The notes beneath the pieces were generated by a model. The model ran no database searches. It was given only the letters and a program-made list of their open reading frames with translations, and had not been told where the DNA came from. The position numbers and the translations under genes were made by a program. From Candidatus Saccharimonadota bacterium (lineage in GTDB: Archaea > Nanohalarchaeota > Nanosalinia > Nanosalinales > Nanosalinaceae), in contig NZ_CP107255.1 of the NCBI RefSeq assembly GCF_029232205.1, positions 330,001 through 362,000 of the forward strand: a stretch of DNA of 32,000 bases, given 5' to 3'. This document shows, one piece after another, positions 1 to 32,000 of this stretch; the stretch's first letter is position 1; each line of letters starts with the position of its first letter.

Positions 1-1034
1 ACCATCAACCGCTCGATGTGGTGAGCATATGCATCATCCAATGCGTGACGAATAGAATCATCAACGGGTGGAAGGCCTGTACTTGCGCTGTAAAACTCTT
101 CTGGCATCGAGTTATCCGCGTTCCAGAAGTTGGCTTCCCTCATCCCTGGCTCCAGCTCGTACATCGCCCGTATGAATTCTCGCCACCCGATGATCTGTCT
201 CAGGAAACCTTCAAGAGAATTCATGGGGTAATCTTTCTCTTCATGGGCCTGTAGAGTTTTCTCTACTATTTCTTCCGGCGTCAAGAGGCCTAAATTGATT
301 GAAGAGGATAGCAGAGAGTGGAAGCCGAACTTGAGGTCTGGATCAATCGCGTCCTGGTAGTCACCGAACTTCTCTAATCTATTCTCAAGGAAGTCTTCAA
401 GATTTTTCAGGGCCTGTTCGCGTGTTGCCGGCCAGAAAAAATCCTCGATTTTCCCAGGATTTTCCGGAAAGTTTTCCTCCACGTATTCTTTCGCATCTTC
501 GACGTGCTGAGAAGAAAACTGTGGTATCTCCGGTTTTTCAATATCTTCCGGCATTTTCTTCCTGTTTTCGGGATCGAAACTCCATTTGCCTCCTTCAGGC
601 TTTCCTTCATCATCTACCAGTATGTTGAACTTTTTCCGCATCTGTTTGTAGTAGTTCAACTGGAAGTACTTGTGTGAAGAGAAGTATTTCTGGTTGAAAT
701 CCATCGAGGCCATGAAACCTGGGTTCTCCTCGAAAACTAGCTCGACATCGAACTTTTCCGCTAGGCCTTCCAGCTGGTTCCTAGCTTTGTGGTCTACAGG
801 ATTGTATATCCTGATTTTATCTTCTTTCTGGAAGATCTCGGCGATATCCTGGTCGTATTCGAAGTATTCGACGTTAAATTTCTCTGAGTAGGCCTTCATT
901 GAGGCCCGGTGTAGTATTAGCTTTTTTCTGTGGAAGTTGAAGTCTGTGAAGTATCTTGAGTGCTCTACGAGGTATTTTATGTCTTCATCTACTGGTTCTG
1001 GGAAGAGCTGGTTTGGGAGGATGATGGAGGCCAT
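1..1034 (-). CDS. Cryptochrome/photolyase-family protein (photolyase-related, COG3046 / FeS-BCP-like); N-terminal part only, ORF runs off the left edge
   Basis: My own minus-strand translation from the ATG (complement of 1032-1034) reads MASIILPNQLFPEPVDEDIKYLVEHSRYFTDFNFHRKKLILHRASMKAY...GKPEGGKWSFDPENRKKMP...LEGFLRQIIGWREFIRAMY...AYAHHIERLM and stays open to nt 1. It is absent from the ORF track because no stop lies in the window. The GGKWxFDxENR and GWREF/HHIERLM motifs are typical of this family. Confidence 0.7.
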   Translation of the reverse strand, partial: MASIILPNQLFPEPVDEDIKYLVEHSRYFTDFNFHRKKLILHRASMKAYSEKFNVEYFEYDQDIAEIFQKEDKIRIYNPVDHKARNQLEGLAEKFDVELVFEENPGFMASMDFNQKYFSSHKYFQLNYYKQMRKKFNILVDDEGKPEGGKWSFDPENRKKMPEDIEKPEIPQFSSQHVEDAKEYVEENFPENPGKIEDFFWPATREQALKNLEDFLENRLEKFGDYQDAIDPDLKFGFHSLLSSSINLGLLTPEEIVEKTLQAHEEKDYPMNSLEGFLRQIIGWREFIRAMYELEPGMREANFWNADNSMPEEFYSASTGLPPVDDSIRHALDDAYAHHIERLM

Positions 1035-1290
1035 ACTGTAAGGTCTAATGCTGAGTTATTTGTCCTTTTTTGTTTCCTGTCTGGCCTTATCCCCAAACTG
1101 TTTTTCTTCTGATCGGCCGTCGTTAGTTTTTCTTTTTGGAGGTCTTATTCCCTGATTTTCTTGATTCTAATGCTGTTTCAGGCCTTGATTTCTGCAGTAA
1201 AGCTCTGTATCTATAGGGAAAAAGGTTTATAATTGATTTTGCAGAATTTCTGGCCTTGTTTTGATAAGTGAAAGGGTTACAGTTTGGTTT

Positions 1291-1506
1291 ATGGATTCAA
1301 CTCAAGCTAAGTTGCTTTTTCCAGTAGGTGCAGTACTGGAGTTTCTGGGAGCGCTGACATTAATCACCAACGATGGAGCCTTAATCTCCAAAGTTGATCT
1401 TGGATTTAGCATTCCAGCTATCCTGCCTGTAGAAGTTCAGGGGATAGGGCTCCTGGCTGCTGGAGGTCTACTAACGGCATTTGCCATAAAGGAGATAAGT
1501 AGCTAG
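1291..1506 (+). CDS. Small hydrophobic membrane protein, hypothetical (the ORF track starts at TTG 1261; ATG 1291 preferred)
   Basis: ORF 1261..1506. The part from MDSTQAKLLFPVGAVLEFLGALTLI... has two hydrophobic segments. A TATA-like TTTATAA lies at 1226-1232 upstream. Confidence 0.4.
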   Translation: MDSTQAKLLFPVGAVLEFLGALTLITNDGALISKVDLGFSIPAILPVEVQGIGLLAAGGLLTAFAIKEISS

Positions 1507-1595
1507 TTAAAACCCTAGACTCCTTACAAAAATTCTCTTCTTTTATCTTTACGCTATGAGAAAATAGGCCTAAAATTTGAGCTTTATATCTAATA

Positions 1596-1871
1596 ATGAG
1601 CGATCCAATTTATTCCAGCAAATTAAAAAGCATAGGCCCTTATTTTAGATGTATGAATACAAAACTGAAAGAGGCCATTCTCAGAGGCCTGTCTGCATCA
1701 GTTTTTTCGGCAGTAGCAACATATCTGGGCCTGAGAGCATGGATAACTCTAAGTATCAGTGTAGGGCCTGTGACAAAGCTTTACTCGCTGGTTGATGCGG
1801 CTACAGTTCTTGCAGCAGTGCTTGCCTTTTTCACTACGGCATTGGCATCGTATACTTCAATGGAGGAATGA
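1596..1871 (+). CDS. Small membrane protein, hypothetical
   Basis: 91-aa ORF with two hydrophobic helices (SASVFSAVATYLGL, AATVLAAVLAFFTTALA). Its stop overlaps the next gene's start (ATGA at 1868-1871). The start is uncertain; an alternative ATG lies at 1653. Confidence 0.4.
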   Translation: MSDPIYSSKLKSIGPYFRCMNTKLKEAILRGLSASVFSAVATYLGLRAWITLSISVGPVTKLYSLVDAATVLAAVLAFFTTALASYTSMEE

Positions 1872-2303: not shown

Positions 2304-3077
2304 TCAGTAAGTGAAGTTTATGTCGGCTCTCACCTGTAAATCTTCTTCGGCTGCTGATCCAAAGTACGAGAATCTTTTGATCTTGCCGTTACCTCTGGAG
2401 ATCCATGCATAGGCCTTTGCCTCTTCAAAGCTTGACAGCTCCTGCTCGTCGTCCGTTGAGGCTTCATCATCGCTGACTACGTGGACCTCAAATATGTCTG
2501 CGTAATTTTCTAGGAGGTCTTCTTTGTCTGGCTGAATCTTAACGAGGATTTCCGAACTGTTTTCACCGGTTGTGCCAAGAACTGTACTGTTTCTAAAGTT
2601 AATTCTGTCGACCGCAGATACTGAAAGGCCTAACTCCTTCCTGCTTAAGGACTCAGATATTTTCTCCGAGCTATTTTCCATGTTAACAATTTCGGTTTCG
2701 GTTCTGTCAGGATAGGTTTCTATATTTTTCACAGGTTGAGGTGAATCTTTGGAGCTTTCTCCGAGACCGAAGCCGATACTGGTGATGGATGTAGTGTTCG
2801 AGTAGGATTTGTTGAAAACACCTTCAGAACTCAAATTTAATCTCATCGGAGCTACTGGTGTCCTCATCAAAACTTTGAACTCGGAGCTTATCTCGTAAAC
2901 ACTGTAATTCTGTGAAAAAGCATTATCAAGTAAAGAACCGGCAGATGAGTTAAAACTAATATCTTCATGGCCTGTATCAAAGTTTTTATTCAAGCTGGCA
3001 TCGCCTCCTGAAATACAGCCGGATGTAGCCACAACCAGAACCAAAATACAGATAGGAAACAGTTTTCTTCGTTCCAT
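2304..3077 (-). CDS. Secreted acidic lipoprotein with Tat-like signal, hypothetical (the ORF track extends to 3098)
   Basis: The N-terminus MERRKLFPICILVLVVATSGC combines a twin-arginine motif (RRKLF), a hydrophobic core and a lipobox-like TSGC. The rest is Ser/Glu/Asp-rich with no recognisable family. I chose the start at the Met preceding RR. Confidence 0.55.
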   Translation of the reverse strand: MERRKLFPICILVLVVATSGCISGGDASLNKNFDTGHEDISFNSSAGSLLDNAFSQNYSVYEISSEFKVLMRTPVAPMRLNLSSEGVFNKSYSNTTSITSIGFGLGESSKDSPQPVKNIETYPDRTETEIVNMENSSEKISESLSRKELGLSVSAVDRINFRNSTVLGTTGENSSEILVKIQPDKEDLLENYADIFEVHVVSDDEASTDDEQELSSFEEAKAYAWISRGNGKIKRFSYFGSAAEEDLQVRADINFTY

Positions 3078-3172
3078 AGACAAAAACATATTCTGCAAAA
3101 AATTTTTTCAATCAATTCCCTGGCCTAGAATCAATAACTCACATTTTTCAAAATCTGCCCAGAAACAAGTAC

Positions 3173-3895
3173 ATGGAAATCGATAACTCGGAAGAAAGAA
3201 TCAGAAACATCCATCAGGATCTCCTAGATGTGTATGGAGAACAGAACTGGCACGACAACGACGACGGCGTCAGACAGCTTCTCATAACAATACTCTCACA
3301 GAACGTAGCAGATACAAATACTGCCAGAGCAGCGGAAAATCTGTTCAACGACTTCAAAGACTACAAAGAAATCGAAGAGACCTCTATAGAAAAACTAGCA
3401 GAATCCATCAATCCAGCAGGCCTTCCAGAGACAAAAGCCAAGAGAATACAGAGAACACTGAAGGCCTTGAGGGAGCATGGAGATTCTGAGGATTACTCTG
3501 TGGACTTTCTCGGCGAGATGGAGGATTCGGATGCGCAGGCCTGGCTTGAAGAGATCAAAGGTATCGGCCCGAAGACTGCAAGCGTTTTACTGAATTTTCA
3601 CTTCGATGCGAACGTCATGCCTGTCGATACGCACGTGGAGAGGATTGCCAAAAGATTCAGGCTGATTCCATTTTCATCTTCAAATGGGAAGGCTCACGAA
3701 TTACTGAATGAGGCCGTTCCTCACGAGATCAAGAACAGCTTCCACATGCTGATGATTGAACATGGGAAGAACAACTGCACAGCCAGAAATCCTACATGCG
3801 AAAATACAAAGCTGAAAAAGTACTGCAGCTACTACGAAAAAGTTATCGAAGGCGATTTAACGCCTGAAGAGTATCCTCCGGAGGCCTGGGAATAG
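3173..3895 (+). CDS. nth: Endonuclease III-like HhH-GPD DNA glycosylase
   Basis: Motifs LLITILSQNVADTNTARAAENLF, the HhH segment IKGIGPKTASVLLNF, PVDTHVERIAKRF, and a C-terminal Cys cluster CTARNPTCENTKLKKYC. Confidence 0.8.
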   Translation: MEIDNSEERIRNIHQDLLDVYGEQNWHDNDDGVRQLLITILSQNVADTNTARAAENLFNDFKDYKEIEETSIEKLAESINPAGLPETKAKRIQRTLKALREHGDSEDYSVDFLGEMEDSDAQAWLEEIKGIGPKTASVLLNFHFDANVMPVDTHVERIAKRFRLIPFSSSNGKAHELLNEAVPHEIKNSFHMLMIEHGKNNCTARNPTCENTKLKKYCSYYEKVIEGDLTPEEYPPEAWE

Positions 3896-4501
3896 ATGGA
3901 TCTTGAAGAGGCACTGGAGAACTGGTCATCCATCAAGAAGTTCACGGATGAAGAAATAGAGGAAGGGAAACTTGAGAAAATTTTCGACTTAACCACTAAG
4001 GCTCCGACAGCTTTCAATTTACAGCCGTACAGATTTATCGTTCTGGACTCGGAAGAAGCGAAAGAAAAGGCCGTAGACTCTGCGATACCGGTCAACAGAT
4101 GGATCCAGTACGCCGACAAAATCGTGGTTCTAGTCGGAGATGAAGAAATAGATGTGAACGCCGATGAAGTCCTCAATCACAAGTTGGAGGAAGGAAAAAT
4201 CGACGAAGAGAAAGCAGAAAATCTTCGAGACATGTACGAGAGGTACAAGGCCCGTGATGAAGAATTCATGACGGGCTGGCTAACGAGAAACACGATGATT
4301 CCGGCGACGTTCTTCATGCTGGCCTGTAAAAATTATGGGGTCGGCTCATGCCCTGTCAGAGGCTTCAGCCAGCCAAAACTATCGGAAAAACTGGATCTGA
4401 AAGATTCTGAAAGGCCTATTCTGTTGATTCCTATCGGCTATCCTAATGAAGAAGATAGGAACTGGCGGAGAAAAGGAGAAGAAATTTTTGAGATTCGCTG
4501 A
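3896..4501 (+). CDS. Nitroreductase-family oxidoreductase
   Basis: The N-terminus LEEALENWSSIKKFTDEEIEEGKLEKIFDLTTKAPTAFNLQPYRFIVL is the classic nitroreductase signature. The ATG directly abuts the nth stop (TAGATG). Confidence 0.75.
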   Translation: MDLEEALENWSSIKKFTDEEIEEGKLEKIFDLTTKAPTAFNLQPYRFIVLDSEEAKEKAVDSAIPVNRWIQYADKIVVLVGDEEIDVNADEVLNHKLEEGKIDEEKAENLRDMYERYKARDEEFMTGWLTRNTMIPATFFMLACKNYGVGSCPVRGFSQPKLSEKLDLKDSERPILLIPIGYPNEEDRNWRRKGEEIFEIR

Positions 4502-4519
4502 CTTTTTATTTTCTGACAT

Positions 4520-4546
4520 CTGTCGAAGGCCTCGACAGGGTTTTTT
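4520..4546 (+). terminator. Hairpin plus T6 run downstream of the nitroreductase gene
   Basis: ctgtcga-aggcc-tcgacag forms a 7-bp perfect stem with a 5-nt loop (4520-4538), followed by gg and tttttt (4541-4546). It lies 19 nt after the stop codon. Confidence 0.5.
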
Positions 4547-4571
4547 ATCTTAGAGGTGGTATTTGTTGGGT

Positions 4572-5054
4572 ATGGATTTCAGGATTTGGGGAGGCCTTGT
4601 TTTTGTAGTGGTTGTTCTGGTTTCTGCTGGATTCTTGTTTTCTCAATCTTGGGAGAGAGGTTCCTCGGATCTTGTTAATGCAAGTTTTTCGGGTTCTTCA
4701 AGTGCGTGGGCGGTATTGGAGGTAGCTGATAATGATACTGAGAGGAGTGAAGGCCTTATGAATGTCTCGAGTATGGATGAGAGGAGAGGAATGCTCTTCG
4801 AATTTGAGGAAGAGGCCCAGAGAACTTTCTGGATGAAGAATACTCTTATTCCGCTGGATATGATTTTTCTGACTGAGGATAGAGATGTTATCAATGTTGA
4901 GACTGCTTATCCGGAACCGAATACAAGTGATGAGGATCTTGAGCGTTATAGCAGCGATGAGCCGGCAAAGTATGTTATAGAGGTTAATGCTGGGTTTGCA
5001 GAGAAGTATTCTATCGAGGAAGGTTCATCTGTAGAATGGAGTAAGTTGGAATAA
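4572..5054 (+). CDS. DUF192 (COG1430) domain protein with N-terminal membrane anchor
   Basis: RSEGLMNVSSMDERRGMLFEFEEEAQRTFWMKNTLIPLDMIFL...YVIEVNAGFAEKYSIEEGSSVEW matches the DUF192 pattern. ATG 4572 is preferred over the track's TTG 4563 because a TATA-like TTTTTATCT (4542-4550) sits about 26 nt upstream. Confidence 0.7.
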   Translation: MDFRIWGGLVFVVVVLVSAGFLFSQSWERGSSDLVNASFSGSSSAWAVLEVADNDTERSEGLMNVSSMDERRGMLFEFEEEAQRTFWMKNTLIPLDMIFLTEDRDVINVETAYPEPNTSDEDLERYSSDEPAKYVIEVNAGFAEKYSIEEGSSVEWSKLE

Positions 5055-5075
5055 TTAAAAAGAAAATATGTGTGG

Positions 5076-5094
5076 AAGGCCTTTTTGGGCCTTT
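5076..5094. terminator. Hairpin in a convergent intergenic region (possible bidirectional terminator)
   Basis: aaggcc-tttttg-ggcctt forms a 6-7 bp stem between the DUF192 stop (5054) and the RNase J stop (5093-5095). It is flanked by T-runs on one strand and A-runs on the other. Confidence 0.4.
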
Positions 5095-6406
5095 ACTGGT
5101 CCAGGTTGATGCATTTGCCGTTTTCGCTGACGAAAACGTCGTCGCCTAGACTGTATCCTTCTTCTCTTGCGAGTTCTACGTAGTCGCCGAGTTTCTGGAT
5201 TGTTCCGTGTGAAGGAATGATGTTGTCTGGCTGTAGGAAGTCGATGAAGTCTCTGTGGTCTTCCTTGTGTGCGTGACCTGTTGTGTGGATTCCTGGGTAG
5301 ATTCTGACACCTTTCTCTCTCATTTTCTCTTCAAGCTCGTATCTGTTGGCTTCGTTGACTGGGCTTGGAATTACCTGTGAGGAGAAGATTACGTGGTCGC
5401 CTTCGTTGAAGTCGAATCCGTATGTTCCGGATGCGATCTTGTCAAGCTGTGCGCCTTTCTCTCCCTGGTTTCCTGTTGCAACGACAAGCCATTCGTCTCT
5501 TTCGCCGTCAACACGGCTCATCAGGTCGTCACATTCGTCGAAGTATGAAACTACTTCGATCTGGCTTGTGTCGATCAGGTCTAGTTCTTCTGCTGATTCA
5601 ACGTATTCTCTGAGTGATCTTCCGACGAACGCGATCTTTCTGCGGCCGTTGTTGGCTTCGATGATCGAGTTCAGTCTGCTGATCTGGCTTGAGAATGTTG
5701 ACATGATTACTGCGCCGCCTGCCTGATAGCAGGAGTTCAGTACGTCTCCAAGTTCGACTTCGACAGATTTCTCTGATCGGGCCCTTCCTGGCTCTGAAAC
5801 TCTTGTTGTTCCAGGGATCATGGCCTTCACTCCTTCCTCTCCAACTTCCTTCAGTCTCTCGACATCGGTAGTTTTCTCGATTACAGGGCTTCTGTCGATC
5901 TTCATGTCGTTTCCGTAGACTACGTAGCCTTCGGAAGTGTCCAGAAGACTTAGAGTTGCGTCAGGGATTGAGTGGTTCACGTGAGCAAATTCAAGAGTGA
6001 ATTCGCCTGAGATCTCCATCTCATCTCCTTTCTCAACTGTAATCAACTGGTTGTCGACATTCTTGCGATCGTCGTCAATCATTCTTTCTACGATTTTACC
6101 GGTGTAAGGAGTGCAGTAGATAGGACAGTCGTGACTGCCGGCAAGCTTTGGAATGCCTCCGACGTGGTCAAGGTGTCCGTGACCTATTACAATTCCTACA
6201 ACGTTTTTATCAAGAACTGGCTCATCCTCAGGGACTGCGCCAATGTCTAAACTCTGGTTTGTTGTCATCTCGTCAACATGGCCTTCAGCAGAGACAACGC
6301 TCTCCATATCGTAACCCATGTCGAAAATGACTACTTCTCCGTTAACTTCTACGGCCGTCATGTTCTTTCCTACTTCTTCATAACCGCCAAGTGTGTAAAC
6401 TTTCAT
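5093..6406 (-). CDS. rnj: Archaeal RNase J (metallo-beta-lactamase / beta-CASP ribonuclease)
   Basis: MKVYTLGGYEEVGKNMTAVEVNGEVVIFDMG, the HGHLDHVGG metal motif, a length of about 437 aa, and a C-terminal HTTGHA..H motif. Confidence 0.85.
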   Translation of the reverse strand: MKVYTLGGYEEVGKNMTAVEVNGEVVIFDMGYDMESVVSAEGHVDEMTTNQSLDIGAVPEDEPVLDKNVVGIVIGHGHLDHVGGIPKLAGSHDCPIYCTPYTGKIVERMIDDDRKNVDNQLITVEKGDEMEISGEFTLEFAHVNHSIPDATLSLLDTSEGYVVYGNDMKIDRSPVIEKTTDVERLKEVGEEGVKAMIPGTTRVSEPGRARSEKSVEVELGDVLNSCYQAGGAVIMSTFSSQISRLNSIIEANNGRRKIAFVGRSLREYVESAEELDLIDTSQIEVVSYFDECDDLMSRVDGERDEWLVVATGNQGEKGAQLDKIASGTYGFDFNEGDHVIFSSQVIPSPVNEANRYELEEKMREKGVRIYPGIHTTGHAHKEDHRDFIDFLQPDNIIPSHGTIQKLGDYVELAREEGYSLGDDVFVSENGKCINLDQ

Positions 6407-7816: not shown

Positions 7817-8060
7817 TAACGAGATGCTGGATGAATTCGATAAAAAAGCAAAGAAATTTCTTGAAAGCGGAAAAAAGGAGAGAGTGCTTGATATCCTCAG
7901 AGAATTTGCATTAGTAGTCTCGTACGACAATGGAAAAGAGCTTGACAATCCTAAACGGTTTATGGACCAGCAGGGATTTGACGAAATAGAAATTGACGAC
8001 TTTACAGAGTACCAGGTTGCAAAATCAATGATAAGAGATCAGGTAAAGAGGTCAGCTTAA
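7809..8060 (+). CDS. Small acidic hypothetical protein (83 aa)
   Basis: Its ATG overlaps the gatD stop (ATGAGTGA) and its stop abuts the next ATG (TAAATG). I recognise no family. Confidence 0.5.
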   Translation: MSDNEMLDEFDKKAKKFLESGKKERVLDILREFALVVSYDNGKELDNPKRFMDQQGFDEIEIDDFTEYQVAKSMIRDQVKRSA

Positions 8061-10496: not shown

Positions 10497-10508
10497 TTAT
10501 AATTTTTT
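10497..10508 (+). promoter_or_regulatory. Thermosome promoter: TATA-like TTATAATTTTTT, with SD-like AGGTGA at 10527-10532
   Basis: The TATA box is about 40 nt upstream of ATG 10541, and AGGTGA lies 8 nt before the ATG. Confidence 0.5.
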
Positions 10509-10540
10509 GTACATGTCTATGAAAATAGGTGAACTAATTT

Positions 10541-12214: not shown

Positions 12215-12257
12215 GCCTTCCATTTCCTCTGTTTTTCTCTTCTAATTCTTCCCCTGA

Positions 12258-13408: not shown

Positions 13409-13458
13409 GCCTAATAAACTATTTAAGTAAGGACGGGGAAACCAAAAATAGTGGTAAT

Positions 13459-25577: not shown

Positions 25578-25643
25578 TCTTAAGAAGAAACCGGTAACAA
25601 AAAATAAAGAAAGAAGAAGGCCCTGAAAATTCCAGTAAAGGCC

Positions 25644-26474
25644 TTACTCCTCCATGTAAATAGTTCTGATCGGGTAAGGAATATCGATACCTGCATCATC
25701 ATACTTGTCCTTAACAAGCTGAGTGACTTCCGAAGAGGCCTTAACCATGTTTGCCTTCGAAGGCTTGGTCCATCCACGAAGCTTCAAGTTCACTGAAGAA
25801 CCTCCAAGCTCATGAACAAGAACCTGAGGCTCTGGATCATCCTCAGTCATCTCGGCCTCCTCCAAGGTCTCCATAGCAAGATCCTTAGCCTTCTCAACAT
25901 CGTCATCGTATCCAACTCCTACAACAACCTCGAAACGTCTCTCATCATAAGCAGTGTTGTTAATCACTGTATTGCTGTAAAGCGTGGAGTTAGGAACGAT
26001 AACCTTTCTTCCATCGTACGTCTTGATCTCGCTCGCACGGATCTTGATATCTCTAACCGTACCGGCCTCGCCAGAAACCTCAATCTGGTCTCCAATCTTG
26101 AAAGGCCTGTTAATCATGATCAAAAGACCTGAAATAAAGTTCGCAATCATATCCTTCAACGCGAAGGACAGGCCTAGACCAATCAACCCTACCATAGTTC
26201 CCAGAGCTGAAAGAGGCACTCCGAAAACACCGAGTAAGGCGACTGCGGTTAGAGAGTAAATGACATAGGATGAAATTCTTTGAGAAGTCTTTGTAACATG
26301 CTTGTCGCCGTTTCGTCTTTCAATAGACTTGGCGATCAGGTAATCGGAAAGCTTATTCACTCCCCATCCAGCAAACATAACTGCAGCCGCTGCAATAACA
26401 AGTTCTGGACCAATATTTACTGAAGGCAGAGGAATACCCGACAGACTTGATGTCAAAGTTCCAATAATTGCCAT
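25644..26474 (-). CDS. Small-conductance mechanosensitive channel (MscS family)
   Basis: ALKDMIANFISGLLIMINRPFKIGDQIEVSGEAGTVRDIKIRASEIKTYDGRKVIVPNSTLYSNTVINNT. I trimmed the start to ATG 26474 (MAIIGTL...). The track's longer N-terminus (to 26579) would overlap the divergent gene and lies upstream of the TATA-like box. Confidence 0.85.
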   Translation of the reverse strand: MAIIGTLTSSLSGIPLPSVNIGPELVIAAAAVMFAGWGVNKLSDYLIAKSIERRNGDKHVTKTSQRISSYVIYSLTAVALLGVFGVPLSALGTMVGLIGLGLSFALKDMIANFISGLLIMINRPFKIGDQIEVSGEAGTVRDIKIRASEIKTYDGRKVIVPNSTLYSNTVINNTAYDERRFEVVVGVGYDDDVEKAKDLAMETLEEAEMTEDDPEPQVLVHELGGSSVNLKLRGWTKPSKANMVKASSEVTQLVKDKYDDAGIDIPYPIRTIYMEE

Positions 26475-26494
26475 GTAAGACAAATCCTCTGGAA

Positions 26495-26506
26495 TTAATA
26501 AAAATT
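26495..26506. promoter_or_regulatory. A/T box TTAATAAAAATT midway between divergent start codons (candidate bidirectional leaderless promoter)
   Basis: Its centre (about 26500) is about 26 nt from both ATG 26474 (minus strand, MscS) and GTG 26526 (plus strand, ThiF-like). Confidence 0.4.
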
Positions 26507-26525
26507 CTTTCGCAACTCTCAAACT

Positions 26526-27464
26526 GTGTACTCGCGATTTCAAGCACTGGAAAATTACGGAAAAAAGCAGAGACAGCAACTTGAGAACTCTGCAGTAGCT
26601 ATAGTAGGTCTAGGAGCAACAGGATCAGTAATAGCTGAAAACCTGGCCAGACACGGAATAAAACTAAAGATAATAGACCGAGATTATCTCGAAGAAAACG
26701 ACGTCTACTCCTCAAATATCTATACACCAGAACAATGCAAAAAATCTCTTCCAAAAGCAGAGGCCGCAAAGGATTATCTTAACCAGTTCACAGAAGTAGA
26801 GGCAAAGGTAGAAAGCCTGAAATCCGAAAATATATCAATTCTTGAAGACGCAGACATAATACTCGATGGAACCGACAACCTCGCAACAAGATTTCTGATC
26901 TCAGAATACTCCCAGAAAAAAGAAACTCCATGGATATACACTGCAGCGATAGCAGAAAAAGGATACTCAATGTTCTTCCAGGACAAATGCTTCAACTGCA
27001 TCTTCGAAAAAGTAAGCACTGGAAAACTTGAAACATGCGAAACAGCAGGAGTAATGAGAGAAATATCAGGCCAGGCCGCCTTAAAATCAAGTCTCAAAGC
27101 AGTAGAATATCTTACAGGCCAGAAAGTAGAGGAAAAACTGGATGTAGTACACAAGGAAGAATCTCTTAACGTCGAATCCTCTGGTTGTCCGGTCTGCAGA
27201 GGAGAAAAATATCCTCATCTCGAAGAGAAAACCGGTACTACTGCAGTCTGCGGAGAAAACAAGTACCAGGTAGAAATACAGATGCAGGAAGGCCTCGAAG
27301 AAAAACTCAGAGAACTTGGAAAAATCAAAGCAGACAACAAATACCTGATCAGAGCCGAAGTAAAAGGAAAAGAATTCACACTATTCAAGGATGGAAGAGT
27401 AATTCTCCGGGCCAGAGACCGAGGCCACGCAGAATCACTGGTCTCAGAAGTACTGGGAATATAA
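26526..27464 (+). CDS. ThiF/MoeB/HesA-family E1-like adenylyltransferase with a C-terminal extra domain
   Basis: YSRFQALENYG...VAIVGLGATGSVIAENLARHG (Rossmann GxGxxG), two CxxC pairs (CFNC, CPVC), and a C-terminal segment of about 90 aa ending EFTLFKDGRVILRARDRGHAESLVSEVLGI. The start is GTG; an in-frame TAA lies at 26499-26501. Confidence 0.8.
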   Translation: MYSRFQALENYGKKQRQQLENSAVAIVGLGATGSVIAENLARHGIKLKIIDRDYLEENDVYSSNIYTPEQCKKSLPKAEAAKDYLNQFTEVEAKVESLKSENISILEDADIILDGTDNLATRFLISEYSQKKETPWIYTAAIAEKGYSMFFQDKCFNCIFEKVSTGKLETCETAGVMREISGQAALKSSLKAVEYLTGQKVEEKLDVVHKEESLNVESSGCPVCRGEKYPHLEEKTGTTAVCGENKYQVEIQMQEGLEEKLRELGKIKADNKYLIRAEVKGKEFTLFKDGRVILRARDRGHAESLVSEVLGI

Positions 27465-27491: not shown

Positions 27492-28331
27492 ATGAATAGA
27501 ACCTATGCAGAGGCCTCAATCACGTTAACACTTGGACTTCTAACAGTAATAACAGGTTACATAGCCGGTTTCTCAAGGCCCGCTGCATACTTCATGATAC
27601 TACCGATATGCGCCTCATTCGGATTCGCAGCATACATCTCCAGCGAAGGATTCAACAAGGCCTCACTAACAGCACTACCATTACTTGTTTTCGCACTACT
27701 CGGTGGCCCTACAGCAATCTACGCAGGAATCACCGCAGTAGGGGTAGTACTTACATCAGTCTTCGCAGGAGGAGAAAAATTCCGATCCTACTACGCATCC
27801 ACAAGAGTACCTCTAGCAGTCATAGGAGTAGGCCTCTCAGTAATCATAGTTTTCACTGTAATGACCAACGCAGGCCTCCAGCAAAAAGTTACTGACACAA
27901 CAGCGGATCTGGTAGGCAGCGAGGCAGAAAGAGCCCTCAACAAAAGTAATGTTGTGTCCTCGCAACGCCAGCAGTACAAAAGTCTTGTAGGTTCAACAGC
28001 AAATACAACCATTATCTACACAAAGGCCTACGTGCTCAATGATACTAGAGATGATCTCAGCGGATCAGATCTTCAGGCAGTGAACACAGCCTTCGATGAT
28101 GCAAGAGACAGGGTCTCAGAAAGAATGACAAACAGCACTGCATCAAGCGCTCAATCTTTGGATGTCTCCGAAAGAGTCTCCGATGTAGTCAAAGGAGAGC
28201 TCAAAGGAATGAGATTTCTGATCTTTATACCATTCATTCTCTCCTCTGTAATGCTTATGCAGCCAGTAATAGGCCTTTTAACAGCATTATTTGCTAAAAT
28301 TTACGCTACAGCGGAGACAAAACTGATCTAG
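27492..28331 (+). CDS. Integral membrane protein, hypothetical
   Basis: 279 aa with 4-5 N-terminal TM helices, a polar Ser/Thr/Asp-rich loop of about 110 aa, and a C-terminal TM helix. I recognise no family. Confidence 0.55.
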   Translation: MNRTYAEASITLTLGLLTVITGYIAGFSRPAAYFMILPICASFGFAAYISSEGFNKASLTALPLLVFALLGGPTAIYAGITAVGVVLTSVFAGGEKFRSYYASTRVPLAVIGVGLSVIIVFTVMTNAGLQQKVTDTTADLVGSEAERALNKSNVVSSQRQQYKSLVGSTANTTIIYTKAYVLNDTRDDLSGSDLQAVNTAFDDARDRVSERMTNSTASSAQSLDVSERVSDVVKGELKGMRFLIFIPFILSSVMLMQPVIGLLTALFAKIYATAETKLI

Positions 28332-28367: not shown

Positions 28368-31055
28368 ATGACTGAAATAAAATTCGCAGATGAAGAACAG
28401 GCCTCGGAAACCCTCCCAGAAGACTTCGAGCCCTACGTAAAGGAATGGTTCAACAACAAGTTTCCAGGCCTCTCCGCCCCACAGAAATACTCCTTCGACC
28501 TGATCAATGATCATGAAAACTCGCTTATCTGCGCACCAACAGGATCAGGAAAAACGCTTTCCGCATTTCTATCAATACTCAACGACCTTTACAGAAAAGG
28601 CGATGAAGGAGAACTAGAAGACAAAGTATACGCAATATATGTCTCCCCGCTGAAGGCCCTGAACAACGACATCCAGAGAAATCTACAGGACCCGCTGGCA
28701 GAAATCAAGGAGACAGCGGAGGAAAACGGCAGAGAAGTACCGGAAGTCAGATCAGCGGTCAGAACTGGCGATACGACAGACGCAGAAAAATCAAAGATGC
28801 TGAAAACACCGCCGCACATACTAATCACAACTCCTGAAAGCCTTGGAATTCTAATCAACTCACCAAAGTTCAAGGAACACCTCAGAGACGTTGAATACCT
28901 GATAACAGATGAGATTCACTCTCTGAGCGAAAACAAGAGAGGAGTACATCTCTCAATGTCAATGGAGCGACTGGAAGACATGGCCAACACCTCACCAACC
29001 AGAATAGGCCTCTCCGCAACACAGGCCCCAATCGACGAAATCGCAAAGTTCCTGGTAGGTTATGAGGCCAACGAAGACATAGAGATAGAAGAGACCGAAT
29101 ACGAGGATATAGAGAAGGCAGATGAGGTGCCGGATGAGGAGTTCGAATCCAGAGGGTGCACTATTGTAGATGTAGCGGCCTCAAAAGAGATAGATCTGGA
29201 AACAGTTTCTCCGGTAGAAGACCTGATTCACACACCTGCCGATGAAATACAGGAAGCACTTTACGACCAACTGCATAACCTGATCCAGGACCACGAAACC
29301 ACAATAATATTCACCAACACGCGCTCCGCCACGGAAAGAATAGTTAACGGCCTTAAAGGGAGATTCGAGGATCACTATGATGAAAATATCGGAGCACACC
29401 ACTCCTCAATGAGCCGAGAAGTAAGACTCGACGTAGAAGAAAGACTGAAGAAAGGAGAAATGAAGGTAGCAGTAACATCCACCTCTCTCGAACTCGGAGT
29501 CGACATCGGAACAGTAGACCTCGTACTACAACTAGGATCTCCGAAAGGAGTAGCAAGAGGAATCCAGAGAATAGGCCGCTCAGGCCACAAAATTGGGGAA
29601 AAGGCCAAAGGAAAAATGATTGTAACAGACAGAGACGACGCAATGGAGTGCTCAGTACTTACAAAATGCGCCAAAGAAGATGATCTCGACAAAATACAGA
29701 TACCAACGCATGCACTCGACGTACTATCACAACACATGGTGGGGATGGCCTGTAACCACCGCTGGGACATCGACCACGCATACAATGTCATAAGAAAAAG
29801 CTACTGCTACAAAGGCCTCAGCAGAGAGGACTTTGAATCAGTGATGAAGTATCTCGGCGGCGAGTTCGAGGAACTCGAGGATCAAAACGTTTACAGAAAG
29901 ATCTGGATAGACAGAGAGGAAAACAGGTTCGGCCGCTCCGGAAAAATGACGCGCGTCATCTACATGACAAACATCGGCACTATACCTGACGAAACCGGGT
30001 ACGACGTCAAGACGCGTGGAGAAGGAAAGTTTGTCGGATCGCTGGATGAAGAGTTCCTTGACCGTTTGACCAAGGGAGATATATTCACTCTTGGAGGAAA
30101 AACCTACCAGTTCAGCTACGCAAAAGGTATGAAAGTTTTCGTTGATCCAAAACCAAACCGTTCTCCTACTGTACCTTCCTGGTACTCTGAAAGGCTGCCG
30201 CTGAGTTATGATCTAGGCCTTAAAATTGGCAAGTTCCGCCAGCAAGTAGCTCAACAGCTAGAGATGGGTGCTGGAGATGACGACATCGTTGAATGGATCA
30301 TGCACAACTACTATCTAGATGAAAACACGGCCAGAGCAATCTTCGGATACATTAAAGAGCAGTACCAGTTTACAGGAGAAGTCTCCAGTCACGAAGAGAT
30401 AACTGTCGAGAAATACATCGACGACGATAACAGGCAGAACCTGATCTTCCAGACAATCTACGGCCGCAGAGCCCACGATGCAATCGCGAGAATCCTGGCC
30501 AACATGCTGCAGAAGAAGTTCGGCTCCAACATTGGCATGGTAATTGACGACAATGGATTCATACTTGTAACTCCAAGAAGACCTGTCGACCTCGACGGTC
30601 TCATGGATGATCTAGCAGCATGCAATCCTGAAGAACAGTTAAAGGAGGCCGTCAGGAAGACAGAGCTGATGAAGAGAAGATTCCGGCACGTAGCAGGAAG
30701 ATCACTTATGATTCTCAGAAACTACGCCGGCAACTCGAAGACAGTCGGACAGCAACAGATGAAAGGCCACTTCCTTCTCTCAGCGATCAGAAACGAGTAT
30801 GGTGAGGACTTCCCAATGGTGAAGGAAACCTATAGAGAGATCATGGAGGATGCTATGGATATCAAGCATGCTGAAGAAGTGATTGAAGGCCTTGGCTCCG
30901 ACGAAATAACTTATGATTTGAGGGAGGCCAGTATTCCATCTCCTTTCAGCCACAACCTGCTGCTACAGGGAAGTACTGATGTCATCAAGATGGAGGATAG
31001 AAAGGAGAGGCTTCAGCAAATGCATCAACAGGTCATGGACAGGATCGAAGACTGA
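28368..31055 (+). CDS. lhr: Lhr-like ATP-dependent DEAD/DEAH-box helicase
   Basis: Motif I is CAPTGSGKTLSAF, motif II is TDEIHSL, then SATQ and a motif VI-like GRSGH. The long C-terminal Lhr/DEAD-associated region gives a length of 895 aa. An acidic insertion (EANEDIEIEETEYEDIEKADEVPDEEFE) is present. Confidence 0.85.
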   Translation: MTEIKFADEEQASETLPEDFEPYVKEWFNNKFPGLSAPQKYSFDLINDHENSLICAPTGSGKTLSAFLSILNDLYRKGDEGELEDKVYAIYVSPLKALNNDIQRNLQDPLAEIKETAEENGREVPEVRSAVRTGDTTDAEKSKMLKTPPHILITTPESLGILINSPKFKEHLRDVEYLITDEIHSLSENKRGVHLSMSMERLEDMANTSPTRIGLSATQAPIDEIAKFLVGYEANEDIEIEETEYEDIEKADEVPDEEFESRGCTIVDVAASKEIDLETVSPVEDLIHTPADEIQEALYDQLHNLIQDHETTIIFTNTRSATERIVNGLKGRFEDHYDENIGAHHSSMSREVRLDVEERLKKGEMKVAVTSTSLELGVDIGTVDLVLQLGSPKGVARGIQRIGRSGHKIGEKAKGKMIVTDRDDAMECSVLTKCAKEDDLDKIQIPTHALDVLSQHMVGMACNHRWDIDHAYNVIRKSYCYKGLSREDFESVMKYLGGEFEELEDQNVYRKIWIDREENRFGRSGKMTRVIYMTNIGTIPDETGYDVKTRGEGKFVGSLDEEFLDRLTKGDIFTLGGKTYQFSYAKGMKVFVDPKPNRSPTVPSWYSERLPLSYDLGLKIGKFRQQVAQQLEMGAGDDDIVEWIMHNYYLDENTARAIFGYIKEQYQFTGEVSSHEEITVEKYIDDDNRQNLIFQTIYGRRAHDAIARILANMLQKKFGSNIGMVIDDNGFILVTPRRPVDLDGLMDDLAACNPEEQLKEAVRKTELMKRRFRHVAGRSLMILRNYAGNSKTVGQQQMKGHFLLSAIRNEYGEDFPMVKETYREIMEDAMDIKHAEEVIEGLGSDEITYDLREASIPSPFSHNLLLQGSTDVIKMEDRKERLQQMHQQVMDRIED

Positions 31056-31058
31056 TTG

Positions 31059-31065
31059 TTTAAAT
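31059..31065 (+). promoter_or_regulatory. TATA-like TTTAAAT, about 29 nt upstream of ATG 31091
   Basis: Spacing and composition fit. It lies just after the lhr stop. Confidence 0.35.
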
Positions 31066-31090
31066 GTTCAGATAGAACTGTTATACAGGG

Positions 31091-32000
31091 ATGCTAACCG
31101 CATTAAGCAATTCGGCGTTAAGCAATTATTTTCTTGATCCGGCCTGGGTACTGGCGCTAGCAGCCCTAATACCGCTGATCATATTCTACCTGGTAAAGCC
31201 CAAGCCTGATGAAAAGATGATGCCCTCAATCCGGTTCTTCATGAAGGACAGGAAGGAAGGCAGGATAAAACAGGCCATATCAAAAATTCTGCAAAACCTC
31301 ATGCTGATATTCCATATACTCTTTGTCATAGCAGTGGTAGCGGCAGTAGCAAATCCTTTCATCAATGGCCCTTCAACTGCGGATAGGTCCGTAGTTGTAA
31401 TTGATAACTCTGCAAGTATGGAAGGATCTCTAGAAGATGCCAAGAACTTTGCAGTAGATAGGCTTGGAGGAACAAATACTGTAATCCTAGTAAACGATGA
31501 CGTAAAGGTTATAGCCAATGAAGCAACCAGGGCCTCAGCAAGAAGAGCAATTAATAATGTAGAACTGGAGGAAACTCCTACAGATCTCGCAAGAGCCCTG
31601 CAGATATCAAGAAACTATCGGGGCCAGCTAGTTCTTGCGAGCGACACAGATCACACGGCAAGCTCTAGAGAAACAACATCTGTAATACAGAATATCAAGG
31701 CCAATAGAGAAGTATACGTAATGGATGCAAAGACATCCAACTCCTGGGGATTCGCAGACCTAAACGTCAAAGAATCGTGGGTGGAAGTCAAAAACTATGA
31801 CGACAGTCAGCAACAGGTAAACATAGAGCTTGATGGCACAGCTGAGAGCGTTACACTCCAACCTGGAGAGGCCCGAAGAGTAGACATCGATCTAGAAAAA
31901 GGAGAGAACACAGTCTCGCTGCCAGAAGATGGAATGGCTGCAGACAACACTCTCTCAGTATACAGGCCTGAACAGTCAACACTTGAAGTAGCAGTAATAG
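31091..32000 (+). CDS. BatA-N (aerotolerance-regulator N-terminal) / von Willebrand factor A domain membrane protein; partial, runs off the right edge
   Basis: My own translation reads MLTALSNSALSNYFLDPAWVLALAALIPLIIFYLVKPKPDEKMMPSIRFF...SVVVIDNSASMEGS (a vWA MIDAS-like DxSxS) and stays open to nt 32000. It is not in the ORF track because no stop lies in the window. The track's minus ORF 31186..31518 is antisense to it. Confidence 0.7.
   Translation, partial: MLTALSNSALSNYFLDPAWVLALAALIPLIIFYLVKPKPDEKMMPSIRFFMKDRKEGRIKQAISKILQNLMLIFHILFVIAVVAAVANPFINGPSTADRSVVVIDNSASMEGSLEDAKNFAVDRLGGTNTVILVNDDVKVIANEATRASARRAINNVELEETPTDLARALQISRNYRGQLVLASDTDHTASSRETTSVIQNIKANREVYVMDAKTSNSWGFADLNVKESWVEVKNYDDSQQQVNIELDGTAESVTLQPGEARRVDIDLEKGENTVSLPEDGMAADNTLSVYRPEQSTLEVAVI

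Follow-up and report, generated by a model that had tools for sequence, protein, structure and literature searches.

The window, which is the whole stretch of DNA analysed (32,000 nucleotides), derives from a nanohaloarchaeon, that is, a tiny, symbiotic, salt-loving archaeon of the DPANN. Archaeal genes for GatD/GatE, thermosome, RFC and Lhr were identified in it, and the thermosome is 94% identical to that of Ca. Nanohaloarchaea archaeon M3_22. The GC content was computed to be 45.0%, replacing a figure of about 43% that had been estimated by eye in the initial annotation. Exact matching gave 82 copies of the palindrome AGGCCT, more than of any other hexamer in the window; the count by hand had also been about 82. 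The sites, to which no strand is assigned, are distributed over the three codon phases as AGG CCT (phase 1, 13 sites), xAG GCC Txx (phase 2, 19 sites) and xxA GGC CTx (phase 3, 43 sites), the other seven being intergenic or at gene ends.

Genes on both strands carry the hexamer. In the first 10 kb or so, ORF 3-1034(-) contains sites 73-78, 286-291 and 763-768 (phase 3) and 890-895 (phase 2), ORF 1596-1871(+) site 1685-1690 (phase 3), and ORF 2304-3098(-) sites 2411-2416 (phase 2) and 2626-2631 (phase 3). ORF 3173-3895(+) has one site in phase 3 (3418-3423) and three in phase 2 (3462-3467, 3537-3542 and 3882-3887). It is followed by ORF 3896-4501(+) with 4412-4417 (phase 1) and ORF 4563-5054(+) with 4592-4597 and 4751-4756 (phase 3). 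Sites 6679-6684, 7495-7500 and 7651-7656 (phase 3) and 6737-6742 and 7421-7426 (phase 1) are located in ORF 6524-7816(+), while 9003-9008, 10089-10094 and 10116-10121 (phase 3) and 9835-9840 (phase 1) are located in ORF 8587-10446(+).

Further along, sites were assigned to ORF 10541-12214(+) (10876-10881, phase 3; 11559-11564, phase 2), ORF 12310-12924(+) (12617-12622, phase 2; 12799-12804, phase 1), ORF 14054-14737(+) (14200-14205, phase 3) and ORF 14734-15144(+) (14781-14786, phase 3). All three phases are represented in ORF 15141-16853(+), with 15270-15275 and 16116-16121 in phase 1, 16315-16320 in phase 2 and 16355-16360 in phase 3. ORF 16837-17709(+) contains 16911-16916, 17055-17060, 17067-17072 (only 12 nt after site 17055), 17451-17456 and 17640-17645 in phase 3 and 17330-17335 in phase 2. 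Sites 17875-17880 and 18367-18372 (phase 3) and 18012-18017 (phase 2) were found in ORF 17717-18769(+), and 18831-18836 and 19017-19022 (phase 3), 18887-18892 and 18905-18910 (phase 2) and 19471-19476 (phase 1) in ORF 18640-19632(+). In ORF 19620-22157(+), sites 20066-20071, 20564-20569, 21428-21433 and 21731-21736 are in phase 3 and 21597-21602 is in phase 1.

Three minus-strand genes follow, namely ORF 22475-23668(-) (23404-23409, phase 2; 23645-23650, phase 1), ORF 23732-24682(-) (23916-23921, phase 3; 24328-24333, phase 2; 24650-24655, phase 1) and ORF 25644-26579(-) (25736-25741, phase 2; 26103-26108, phase 1; 26170-26175, phase 3). The remaining genes are on the plus strand. ORF 24750-25250(+) has 24851-24856 and ORF 26526-27464(+) has 27290-27295, both in phase 3. 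Sites 27511-27516, 27658-27663 and 28024-28029 (phase 2) and 27830-27835, 27872-27877 and 28271-28276 (phase 3) are in ORF 27492-28331(+). ORF 28368-31055(+) contains 28399-28404 (phase 2) and 28466-28471, 29006-29011, 29813-29818, 30215-30220 and 30887-30892 (phase 3), and ORF 31091-31999(+) contains 31964-31969 (phase 1).

Of the seven other sites, 1180-1185 and 1566-1571 are intergenic. In intergenic site 4527-4532, AGGCC makes up the loop of a terminator-like hairpin (4515-4542) with a T run after it, and site 5077-5082, between convergent genes, lies in the left arm of a hairpin at 5075-5094 (GAAGGCCU/GGGCCUUU). Site 12213-12218 overlaps the stop codon of the thermosome gene (TAG, 12212-12214), and site 13407-13412 that of ORF 12905-13408 (TAG, 13406-13408). 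Site 25639-25644, at the 3' end of ORF 25644-26579(-), belongs to one arm of a terminator-like hairpin (25609-25653, minus strand), the other arm of which has GGCC at 25619. The intergenic site given as 1567 in the initial annotation starts at 1566.

Based upon base composition (order 0), 6.1 copies of AGGCCT were expected, so that the claimed excess of more than 10-fold holds. Markov models of order 1, 2, 3 and 4 gave expectations of 7.3, 22.6, 50.8 and 84.6, respectively; the excess therefore stands at orders 0-3 and is gone at order 4, but only because the pentamers AGGCC (157 on the plus strand of the whole window) and GGCCT (131) already hold the signal. At maximal order, AGGCC was found 157 times versus 119 expected and GGCC 243 times versus 137.7. 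The hand counts of GGCC were exact (13 in 1-1200, 14 in 10501-12240 and 11 in 15121-16860), as were those of the control palindromes in 1-1200 (CCGG 6, CGCG 3, GCGC 1).

Bare GGCC, which had been described as the core of the signal, proved to be an imprecise definition and was rejected as the enriched unit: lacking both the 5' A and the 3' T ([CGT]GGCC[ACG]), it was observed 36 times in the window versus 32.5 expected. Relative to the direction of transcription, AGGCC (160 versus 40.6 expected) and GGCCT (108 versus 29.0) are strand-symmetric. In the lineage of the window, the unit is AGGCC, a pentamer that may lie on either strand, and the palindrome is consequently favoured where two pentamers overlap. 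Half-sites are enriched 2.1-2.7x in the clade of the window and 0.9-1.6x elsewhere, and the strict hexamer is enriched in three other nanohaloarchaeal clades, so that different "dialects" can be distinguished. No flanking consensus was found around the AGGCCT sites, which are thus not part of a longer repeat.

The contribution of protein sequence and codon usage was assessed by shuffling synonymous codons inside each gene, with the proteins and per-gene codon usage fixed. Coding AGGCCT was observed 75 times in the window versus 13.0+-3.1 after shuffling (z 19.8), and coding GGCC 229 times versus 89.6 (z 19.5). The 19 control 4- and 6-mers gave 0.6-2.1x (|z| <= 2.2), with palindromes other than AGGCCT near 1.0. 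A slot was defined as a coding position where the protein permits AGGCCT synonymously. Over positions 1-32,000, 75 of the 114 slots (66%) are filled, compared with 74% in the three other enriched clades and 8% in the controls (non-enriched relatives). Odds ratios versus controls in the three codon phases were 44, 25 and 24. A preference for one codon pair, which the initial annotation had discounted, is ruled out as the cause. In non-coding DNA, 49 sites were found in 8.4 kb, which is 44x composition versus 0.7x in controls, and the enrichment holds regardless of frame, strand or coding status, as had been proposed.

Slot occupancy did not depend on local site density (rho 0.05, p 0.18 against distance to the nearest other site). 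For slots common to independently enriched clades, joint occupancy was as expected from multiplying the marginals (8/8.4, 12/11.4 and 10/9.6). The pressure on the DNA sequence itself is strong, uniform and selection-like, placing AGGCCT in about two-thirds of the positions that the proteins tolerate, with a comparable excess in spacers. Amino-acid sequences have also been altered so as to admit the hexamer: slots number 3.8 versus 2.6 per kb (p 6e-5), and in orthologue alignments 308 slots were window-only versus 178 control-only.

The enrichment is patchy among nanohaloarchaea. AGGCCT is 7-20x over composition in the window and in loci L002, L004-L006, L011, L013, L032, L045, L046 and L206, and about 20x in both of two 21-kb regions of Nanosalina VS9-1. 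It stands at 0-2.7x in most other nanohaloarchaea, including the cultured Nanohalobium constans (1.8x). In neighbouring lineages, the enrichment is absent or GGCC is avoided. The strongly enriched taxa fell in one clade in 0 of 200 bootstraps of a 7-protein tree. GGCC is avoided throughout the phylum, suggesting that enzymes acting on it are an active source of selection there.

A Vsr-like very-short-patch repair bias regenerating the site had been suggested, with depletion of single-mutation neighbours as its signature. The deamination neighbours are not depleted in the window (AGGTCT 6 versus 5.3 expected; AGACCT 18 versus 14.1). Their share of unfilled slots was 0.13-0.14 in the pooled enriched genomes versus 0.115 in controls, and that of AAGCCT/AGGCTT was 0.075-0.135 versus 0.063. 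The non-motif synonymous codons GGA, GGG and GGT were all lowered about equally (0.30, 0.44 and 0.33 of control). A T:G repair bias of the Vsr/Mig type was rejected.

AGGCCT recalls the still unexplained HIP1 repeats of cyanobacteria, and the analogy drawn earlier holds for hyper-abundance, occurrence in spacers as well as in every frame, and the concentration of one-off variants at the outer positions, a bias common to the cyanobacterial HIPs (PMC4390886). The best reading is that AGGCCT is here a HIP-type "highly iterated palindrome" kept by a genome-wide, selection-like pressure at the DNA level. No archaeal precedent for such an AGGCCT palindrome was found in the literature searched. Alternate HIPs of cyanobacteria are found together with a methyltransferase whose specificity matches (PMC4390886), and an octamer with an AGGCCT core, CAGGCCTG, is over-represented in Synechococcus PCC 6312 (PMC5861425).

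The likeliest cause of the pressure is a candidate lineage-specific enzyme of the restriction-modification world recognising AGGCCT, or AGGCC in the lineage of the window, most probably an orphan DNA methyltransferase without a partner nuclease. In favour of such an enzyme, AGGCCT belongs to the classical type II specificities, being that of StuI, and the avoidance of GGCC in the phylum and the parallels with cyanobacterial HIPs, namely the matching methyltransferases and the outer-position variants, point the same way. If the cell used the mark of this enzyme, mutations creating sites would be preferentially fixed and existing sites preferentially retained, either by ordinary selection for marked sites or by a methyl-directed ratchet indifferent to mismatch type, which Elhai is said to have proposed for HIPs. 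Nanohaloarchaea are not known to possess methyl-directed mismatch repair, a point against this proposal. Gain, loss or transfer of the enzyme would explain the patchiness, and differing specificity the dialects of pentamer and hexamer. Direct selection would account for the sequence patterns just as well, and so would an uptake-type drive. A HIP-type palindrome under DNA-level pressure exerted via a lineage-specific recognising enzyme is the best explanation as a whole, and is put forward tentatively, at somewhat less than an even chance. The window and about 1.3 Mb of related loci yielded no methyltransferase gene. As only about 2-4% of each genome is represented in these loci, this is of little weight in either direction.

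Elhai's model reportedly predicts that sites saturate at about one per kb. The density here is higher, reaching 2.6 hexamers per kb and about 9 pentamers per kb, and this, together with the irrelevance of local density, counts against a ratchet of that type. The non-palindromic pentamer of the window clade is an unusual unit for a type II methyltransferase and counts against such an enzyme. The only nanohaloarchaeal methylome found, from a different genus, has the motif GDGCHC (PMC10266531).

The hexamer AGGCCT was found exactly 82 times in the window, in agreement with the hand count of about 82 in the initial annotation, and was its commonest hexamer, GAAGAA being second-placed with 68 copies. 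The GC content, which had been put at about 43% by eye, was computed to be 45.0%. On recount, the numbers earlier reported for GGCC in three regions (13, 14 and 11) and for CCGG, CGCG and GCGC in nt 1-1200 (6, 3 and 1) were exact. Over the whole window GGCC occurred 243 times versus 65, 31 and 35 for CCGG, CGCG and GCGC, respectively. Based on Markov models of orders 0, 1, 2, 3 and 4, the expected numbers of AGGCCT were 6.1, 7.3, 22.6, 50.8 and 84.6. The excess over base composition is 13.5-fold, in keeping with the figure of more than 10-fold claimed before; it was kept at orders 0-3 and gone at order 4, since the overlapping pentamers already carry the signal. At maximal order AGGCC was found 157 times (119 expected) and GGCC 243 times (137.7 expected). 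Distances between AGGCCT sites in the 32 kb were approximately exponential, with a CV of 0.90.

A set of 34 non-overlapping ORFs covered 94% of the window. AGGCCT was present in the codon phases AGG CCT (13 copies), xAG GCC Txx (19) and xxA GGC CTx (43), in genes of both strands, and seven copies lay in spacers or gene ends, which bears out the earlier statement that all frames, both strands and intergenic DNA are affected. Synonymous codons were permuted within each gene, leaving the proteins and the per-gene codon usage unchanged. The 75 coding copies of AGGCCT compare with 13.0±3.1 expected from this shuffle (z 19.8), and the 229 coding copies of GGCC with 89.6±7.2 (z 19.5). In the same shuffle the palindrome controls, from a set of 19 other 4- and 6-mers that includes the themselves enriched AGGCC and GGCCT, were at 0.6-2.1x with |z| ≤ 2.2, so that the signal is, as proposed, not a general effect of GC palindromes. 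An origin in codon-pair or dipeptide preference, also doubted by the initial annotation, was ruled out by the synonymous and whole-codon shuffles, the distribution over three phases and the enrichment in non-coding DNA (44x). The initial annotation had stated that its claim would fail if the count came near the Markov expectation or if the excess were lost given codon-pair usage. The excess held at orders 0-3, and with 75 coding copies against 13.0 and the controls flat, neither outcome was observed.

The reading that there is no DNA-level signal, and that an assembly artefact or a halophilic proteome, through its amino-acid composition, codon usage or codon pairs, produced the counts, can be dismissed with near certainty. 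Lower-order composition does explain part of the 13.5-fold excess, as seen in the order 2 and order 3 expectations, but the excess stays with proteins and codon usage fixed (z ~20), and it extends to three phases, both strands and non-coding DNA. Relatives of like proteome and gene order lack it, and fill far fewer of the positions at which their peptides would allow the hexamer. In addition, an independent Logan assembly (L001) was 100% identical to the window over 2350 bp, which rules out an assembly artefact.

The initial annotation referred to a GGCC core. When all words of the form NGGCCN were tabulated, AGGCCA, AGGCCC and AGGCCG were found 33, 27 and 25 times (12.9, 7.1 and 7.9 expected) and CGGCCT, GGGCCT and TGGCCT 11, 9 and 13 times (4.4, 5.1 and 6.8 expected), with AGGCCT itself at 75 (12.7 expected). 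The nine words [CGT]GGCC[ACG] pooled were at expectation (36 versus 32.5). Enrichment is limited to GGCC sites preceded by A or followed by T, and the label "GGCC core" is therefore wrong; the enriched unit in the window lineage is the pentamer AGGCC, on either strand. In the pooled data of the window clade, the excess of the hexamer was about what two half-units acting independently would give (2.7 × 2.1 ≈ 5.8). The other three enriched clades (hexamer clades) are unlike the window clade in this respect, with a strict hexamer at 6.8-7.1x and the half-sites at just 0.9-1.6x. One-off variants were at 2.6-3.8x (AGGCCV) and 1.8-2.5x (BGGCCT), and those altered at inner positions at ~1x or below. 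Relative to the coding strand, AGGCC (3.9x) and GGCCT (3.7x) were symmetric, which does not match a strand-skewed signal of the Chi or KOPS type. Neither a consensus beyond six bases nor an 8-mer palindrome was found around AGGCCT, which is thus not a repeat element; with Rfam and tRNA scans of the window also empty, a longer repeat, a mobile element and an 8-mer palindrome were ruled out. Two other pentamers, CAGGA (136 versus 96, z 5.9) and ACAGG (114 versus 77, z 6.3), together with ACAGGA, were enriched window-wide beyond codon usage and do not overlap GGCC.

The gene content is archaeal: besides a type IV pilus-like operon, the window encodes GatD/GatE, the thermosome, the small and large RFC subunits, Lhr and aRNase J. 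For the thermosome, identity is 94% with 'Ca. Nanohaloarchaea archaeon M3_22' and 78-84% with most of about 40 other Nanohaloarchaeota. Among relatives, where the counts are not fully independent because enriched and control (non-enriched) loci mostly represent one syntenic neighbourhood, AGGCCT exceeded base composition 7.3x and 9.4x in L002 and L045, 17.9x, 16.3x and 9.0x in L004 (SG9), L005 and L006, 16.8x and 18.1x in L011 and L013, and 16.5x and 20.5x in L032 and L046 (Nanosalina VS9-1). A further enriched lineage was represented by L206 (9.3x). A second, separate 21-kb region of VS9-1 gave 19.3x, so the enrichment is not confined to one neighbourhood. Intermediate levels were obtained for L008 (5.5x) and L010 (5.0x), and most other nanohaloarchaea were at 0-2.7x, among them the cultured Nanohalobium constans LC1Nh (1.8x). 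An alternative iterated palindrome was sought in the non-enriched lineages and not found, their top hexamers being ordinary acidic-codon repeats.

Trees were constructed by neighbour-joining from one to seven proteins. The comparisons as a whole drew on 20-32 kb per genome, with genes in the related loci taken from greedy ORF calls. The enriched genomes formed several separate groups on the thermosome tree and on the seven-protein tree. On the latter, the strongly enriched taxa were recovered as one clade in 0 of 200 bootstraps, and the non-enriched L003 fell inside the group of the window, L002 and L004 in 199 of 200. The scattered groups and the placement of L003 indicate that the trait was gained or lost several times. 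L003 (JBDGSE010000031.1) has a GC content of 56% versus 45-48% in its neighbours; in this lineage a change in base composition may have accompanied loss of the motif. Another locus, L020 (JBLGBK010000003.1), is titled 'MAG: Colwellia polaris', a bacterium, and carries a syntenic thermosome locus of nanohaloarchaeal type (79% identical); the bin looks mislabelled or contaminated.

AGGCCT is of the same sequence class as the type II palindromes subject to restriction-site avoidance (e.g. GGCC of HaeIII). Such avoidance was seen in relatives, with GGCC at 0.1-0.6x in many nanohaloarchaea and at 0.04-0.19x in some methanogen outgroups, whereas in the window the sign is reversed and AGGCCT is the commonest hexamer. 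For individual nanohaloarchaeal loci GGCC was 0.11x (L022), 0.19x (L014), 0.41x (L028) and 0.38x (L029) of composition, and for the methanogen MAGs L051-L053 and L063 it was 0-0.19x, values which are consistent with GGCC-specific restriction pressure there.

The strength of the pressure was assessed at slots, i.e. positions whose encoded peptide allows AGGCCT via synonymous codons. The window had 114 slots, of which 75 (66%) were filled, and other hexamer palindromes there mostly occupied 0-20% of theirs. The three hexamer clades filled 74% of slots versus 8% in 15 non-enriched relatives, and across the enriched genomes the filled share of permitted positions was 66-90%. A mismatch at a single position accounted for 25 of the 39 unfilled slots, and 29 of the 56 mismatches in all 39 were at position 1 or 6. 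The codon chosen differed accordingly between enriched and control genomes: GGC for Gly after xxA and before C (72% versus 15%), GCC for Ala after xAG (64% versus 17%) and AGG for AGR-Arg before CC (87% versus 22%). Odds ratios relative to controls were 44, 25 and 24 for the three codon phases. The non-coding DNA of the enriched genomes contained 49 copies of AGGCCT in 8.4 kb, or 44x composition, and that of the controls 0.7x. A single multiplicative factor of ~25-45 fits both coding and non-coding sequence, which places the pressure on DNA and not on RNA or protein.

Protein sequences were shifted. Enriched genomes had 3.8 slots per kb versus 2.6 (p 6e-5), and in orthologue alignments 308 slots were found in the window alone and 178 in controls alone (Wilcoxon p 2e-4); the same comparison of enriched with enriched orthologues was symmetric (119 versus 134). 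The aRNase J gene (5093-6406, minus strand, 437 aa) has neither AGGCCT nor a permitted slot, although a gene of this size should offer about five. There are likewise none in the short ORFs 7809-8060, 8061-8600, 12905-13408 and 22150-22485, which may represent chance or protein-level avoidance in some genes.

Occupancy was independent of the distance to the closest other site (rho 0.05, p 0.18, 621 slots) and AGGCCT sites were as close as 12-27 nt, so that no requirement for spacing or density, and no saturation, applies. At slots common to independently enriched clades, joint occupancy equalled the product of the marginals (8 observed and 8.4 expected, 12 and 11.4, 10 and 9.6). A small excess was confined to the close pair of the window and L002, which jointly filled 17 slots versus 13.0 expected, with synonymous sites near saturation (76% nucleotide identity). 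The motif is a highly iterated palindrome (HIP) type of sequence under a uniform, selection-like pressure that acts at the DNA level and differs between lineages.

One source of such a pressure would be direct selection on AGGCC(T) as the site at which a lineage-specific protein binds DNA, with no methylation needed. A small benefit per site might lie in nucleoid organisation, segregation or the distinction of self from imported host DNA. The uniformity of the pressure speaks for this explanation, in that non-motif alternatives were cut proportionally and the odds ratio was alike in frames and spacers, and the effect on proteins agrees with it. Xu, Lawrence and Durand favour selection for HIP1 of cyanobacteria, which is reportedly kept by it (PMC5861425). 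Nanohaloarchaea have been proposed to import and degrade host DNA (Hamm et al., PMC6642349), in which case a self-mark would be useful. Direct selection is possible but doubtful: the lack of local-density dependence among such close sites is unlike a spacing or structural role, conservation between clades is no higher than independent filling, close relatives of the same biology lack the trait, and no candidate reader protein is known.

One cause suggested in the initial annotation was an orphan methyltransferase for AGGCCT or GGCC with a Vsr-like repair bias that regenerates the site. In the form assessed here, an m5C methyltransferase would act with Vsr- or Mig-type T:G repair that regenerates and multiplies the site; deamination products and near-cognate T:G mismatches would revert to C:G. 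An archaeal precedent exists in the GGCC system MthTI with its T/G glycosylase Mig.MthI, and the window encodes an HhH-GPD glycosylase (3173-3895) which matches the PADLOC model 'type II nicking endonuclease' (E 1.4e-10) and PDB entry 1kea (Mig.MthI; E 6.5e-8). The predicted depletion of C-to-T neighbours was, however, absent from the window, AGGTCT being found 6 times (5.3 expected) and AGACCT 18 times (14.1 expected). Among unfilled slots the share of AGACCT/AGGTCT was 0.126-0.138 versus 0.115 in controls, and that of AAGCCT/AGGCTT 0.075-0.135 versus 0.063. GGT did not fall further than its A- or G-ending counterparts, the pooled shares of GGA, GGG and GGT being 0.30, 0.44 and 0.33 of the control. 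Many sites must have required transversions, and the most depleted tetramer was a transversion neighbour, GGAC (0.58x). Since neighbours are undepleted and alternatives equally reduced, the force acts on the whole motif irrespective of mismatch type. The repair model is disfavoured and appears highly improbable.

The glycosylase itself has only weak similarity to Mig.MthI, and Deinococcus EndoIII-1 is a far better match (E 3.5e-29). Among the 120 homologues listed, identity to it ranged from 66 to 96% and all those named by organism were nanohaloarchaeal, and the same nitroreductase gene adjoins it in the non-enriched N. constans and SW_7_43_1. A lineage-specific Mig-like role was thus ruled out, and as the gene is conserved in non-enriched relatives it is not the determinant of AGGCCT enrichment. 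The comparison with Dcm/Vsr of E. coli and MthTI/Mig of Methanothermobacter holds insofar as the target is of restriction-modification type, its abundance could be altered by repair, partial sites are affected too and, in MthTI, the GGCC core is shared. It differs in that C-to-T neighbours of AGGCCT are not depleted, the VSP effect in E. coli is weaker than the present enrichment by a factor of ten or more, and the window glycosylase is a phylum-wide EndoIII-1 homologue, with no Mig orthologue specific to enriched lineages. In DNA, the segment 3171-4492 with the EndoIII-like and nitroreductase genes shares 88% identity with Nanosalina VS9-1, against 70-78% in its flanks. Between the two genomes the EndoIII-like proteins are 96% identical and the thermosomes just 79%, and the segment may reflect recombination between two AGGCCT-enriched lineages.

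The likeness to HIP1 proposed in the initial annotation holds for the hyper-abundance, the presence in all frames and spacers and the outer-position variants, and does not extend to HIP1 proper (GCGATCGC, cyanobacterial), the present motif being AGGCCT in a nanohaloarchaeon. Both are short, GC-rich palindromes in many-fold excess (82 versus 6.1 by composition and 75 versus 13.0 when shuffled in the window, 7-20x in enriched relatives), the enrichment being reportedly 15-300x for HIP1 and 13-20x, with 44x in spacers, for AGGCCT (PMC5861425; PMC4390886). Both appear in every reading frame and between genes, outside any longer repeat, both have one-off variants gathered at the outermost positions (PMC4390886), and both show lineage-specific variants, with some lineages lacking the motif. 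They are unlike in host (archaeal, DPANN, versus cyanobacterial) and in length, HIP1 having 8 nt and AGGCCT 6 nt (5 nt in the window lineage) with no C...G flank preference. AGGCCT is also far denser, with 2.6 hexamers per kb and 66-90% of slots filled. HIP1 is reported to be conserved, whereas the joint occupancy of AGGCCT is close to independent filling, though synonymous sites are near saturation.

The pressure may come from a lineage-specific enzyme with the recognition sequence AGGCCT (AGGCC in the window clade), most probably an orphan methyltransferase, and this explanation is tentatively preferred. AGGCCT is a classical type II specificity, that of StuI, the GGCC core is avoided across the phylum, and the trait is patchy with "dialects" of specificity. 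Cyanobacterial alternate HIPs co-occur with a methyltransferase of matching specificity and have outer-position variants as found here (PMC4390886), and an octamer with an AGGCCT core, CAGGCCTG, is over-represented in Synechococcus sp. PCC 6312 (PMC5861425). The mark of the candidate methyltransferase would bias which strand is retained where bases are mismatched, a ratchet that works alike for every mismatch type and that Elhai proposed for HIPs (PMC4390886); alternatively, the marked sites might themselves be selected. A weak point is that the saturation near 1 site per kb predicted by the model of Elhai was not observed, the density in the window being 2.6 hexamers per kb. Direct selection or an uptake-like drive would give the same sequence patterns as the enzyme. 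No DNA methyltransferase was found by motif regex in all ORFs of 81 loci (~20-30 kb per genome), by Pfam on the 34 window ORFs, by NCBIfam and PADLOC on ORF subsets, or in the Pfam lists of six further loci. The sole nanohaloarchaeal methylome found, with the motif GDGCHC, is from another genus (PMC10266531).

In an uptake-type molecular drive, DNA of the organism's own kind carrying AGGCC(T) would be preferentially taken up or recombined, and motif-bearing alleles would replace motif-less ones, as with DUS of Neisseria and USS of Pasteurellaceae. These show a genome-wide excess through a selection-like drive, lineage dialects, coding copies that constrain peptides, and paired copies in terminator hairpins; USS and DUS are known to sit in such hairpins. 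The additive, density-independent filling, the lineage dialects, the patchy phyletic pattern and the forcing of the motif onto proteins all fit this scheme. So does the location of three of the seven intergenic sites in terminator-like hairpins made of motif copies. The window also has a type IV pilus-like locus, and the 1.3-kb segment shared with VS9-1 hints at recombination between lineages. Uptake drive nevertheless seems improbable. Known uptake sequences are 9-12 nt long, non-palindromic, present about once per kb and embedded in an extended flanking consensus, whereas AGGCC(T) is a palindrome or half-palindrome of 5-6 nt, which discriminates poorly, without flank consensus. The pilus locus is also kept in non-enriched relatives, and neither a receptor nor signs of competence were found. 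To our knowledge, neither sequence-specific DNA uptake nor DNA uptake sequences have been described in any archaeon.

In the hairpin at 4515-4542 (plus strand) the AGGCC at 4527 forms the loop, while in those at 5075-5094 (plus) and 25609-25653 (minus) the stem is built from a pair of motif copies (AAGGCC...GGGCCTT), one per arm; all three are followed by T/U runs. In a comparison with shuffled sequence only 25609-25653 was clearly better folded (z -2.8). The type IV pilus-like operon (12310-22485) encodes pilin-like proteins, a PilB3-type ATPase and two T2SSF proteins. Two further products, one of 330 aa (18640-19632) and one of 845 aa (19620-22157), had no Pfam, NCBIfam or PADLOC match.

Carrying the enzyme-based explanation further, AGGCC(T) could be a self-propagating "sequence ratchet" of DPANN symbionts, although in this full form the idea is unlikely. 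A mobile orphan methyltransferase, or another reader of AGGCCT, would have been gained repeatedly by nanohaloarchaeal lineages, and the whole genome, proteins included, would then have been rewritten until nearly all tolerated positions were filled. The dense mark might separate symbiont DNA from imported host DNA. If true, this would be the first archaeal HIP, and the origin of HIPs could be found by way of closely related genomes with and without the trait.

The searched literature yielded no paper on AGGCCT, or on iterated palindromes of any kind, in Nanohaloarchaeota or other archaea. The preprint on the SG9 genome and the paper of Hamm et al. on Ca. Nanohaloarchaeum antarcticus (PMC6642349) mention neither methylation nor k-mer bias. 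The HIP phenomenon is known; the present case differs in the archaeal domain, the shorter motif, the unusually high saturation, the measurable effect on protein sequences, and the repeated gain or loss among close relatives. The origin and function of HIPs have been open for nearly 30 years, since HIP1 was described, and comparison within cyanobacteria is weak because HIPs are nearly universal there. Nanohaloarchaea are better suited, with genomes of ~1 Mb, a very strong pressure that fills 66-90% of permitted positions, at least four separate enriched groups, two dialects, and close relatives in which the trait is missing or GGCC is avoided; with such a contrast the cause can be tested by comparison. 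In practical terms, the AGGCCT bias alters proteins and distorts analyses of codon usage, k-mer binning and selection.

Viral contigs scanned for AGGCCT clusters yielded, among the matches listed, mostly tandem repeats and unrelated low-GC contigs. In three IMG/VR contigs from unrelated low-GC sources (L083, L125 and L158; GC ~36%), GGCC was at 4-7x and AGGCCT at 15-33x composition in short stretches, figures which are biased upward because these loci were picked for AGGCCT clusters. In the window, the motif overlaps the TAG stop codon of two genes (T-AGGCCT, 12212-12218 and 13406-13412), and TAGGCC was found 24 times in coding DNA versus 4.8 expected.
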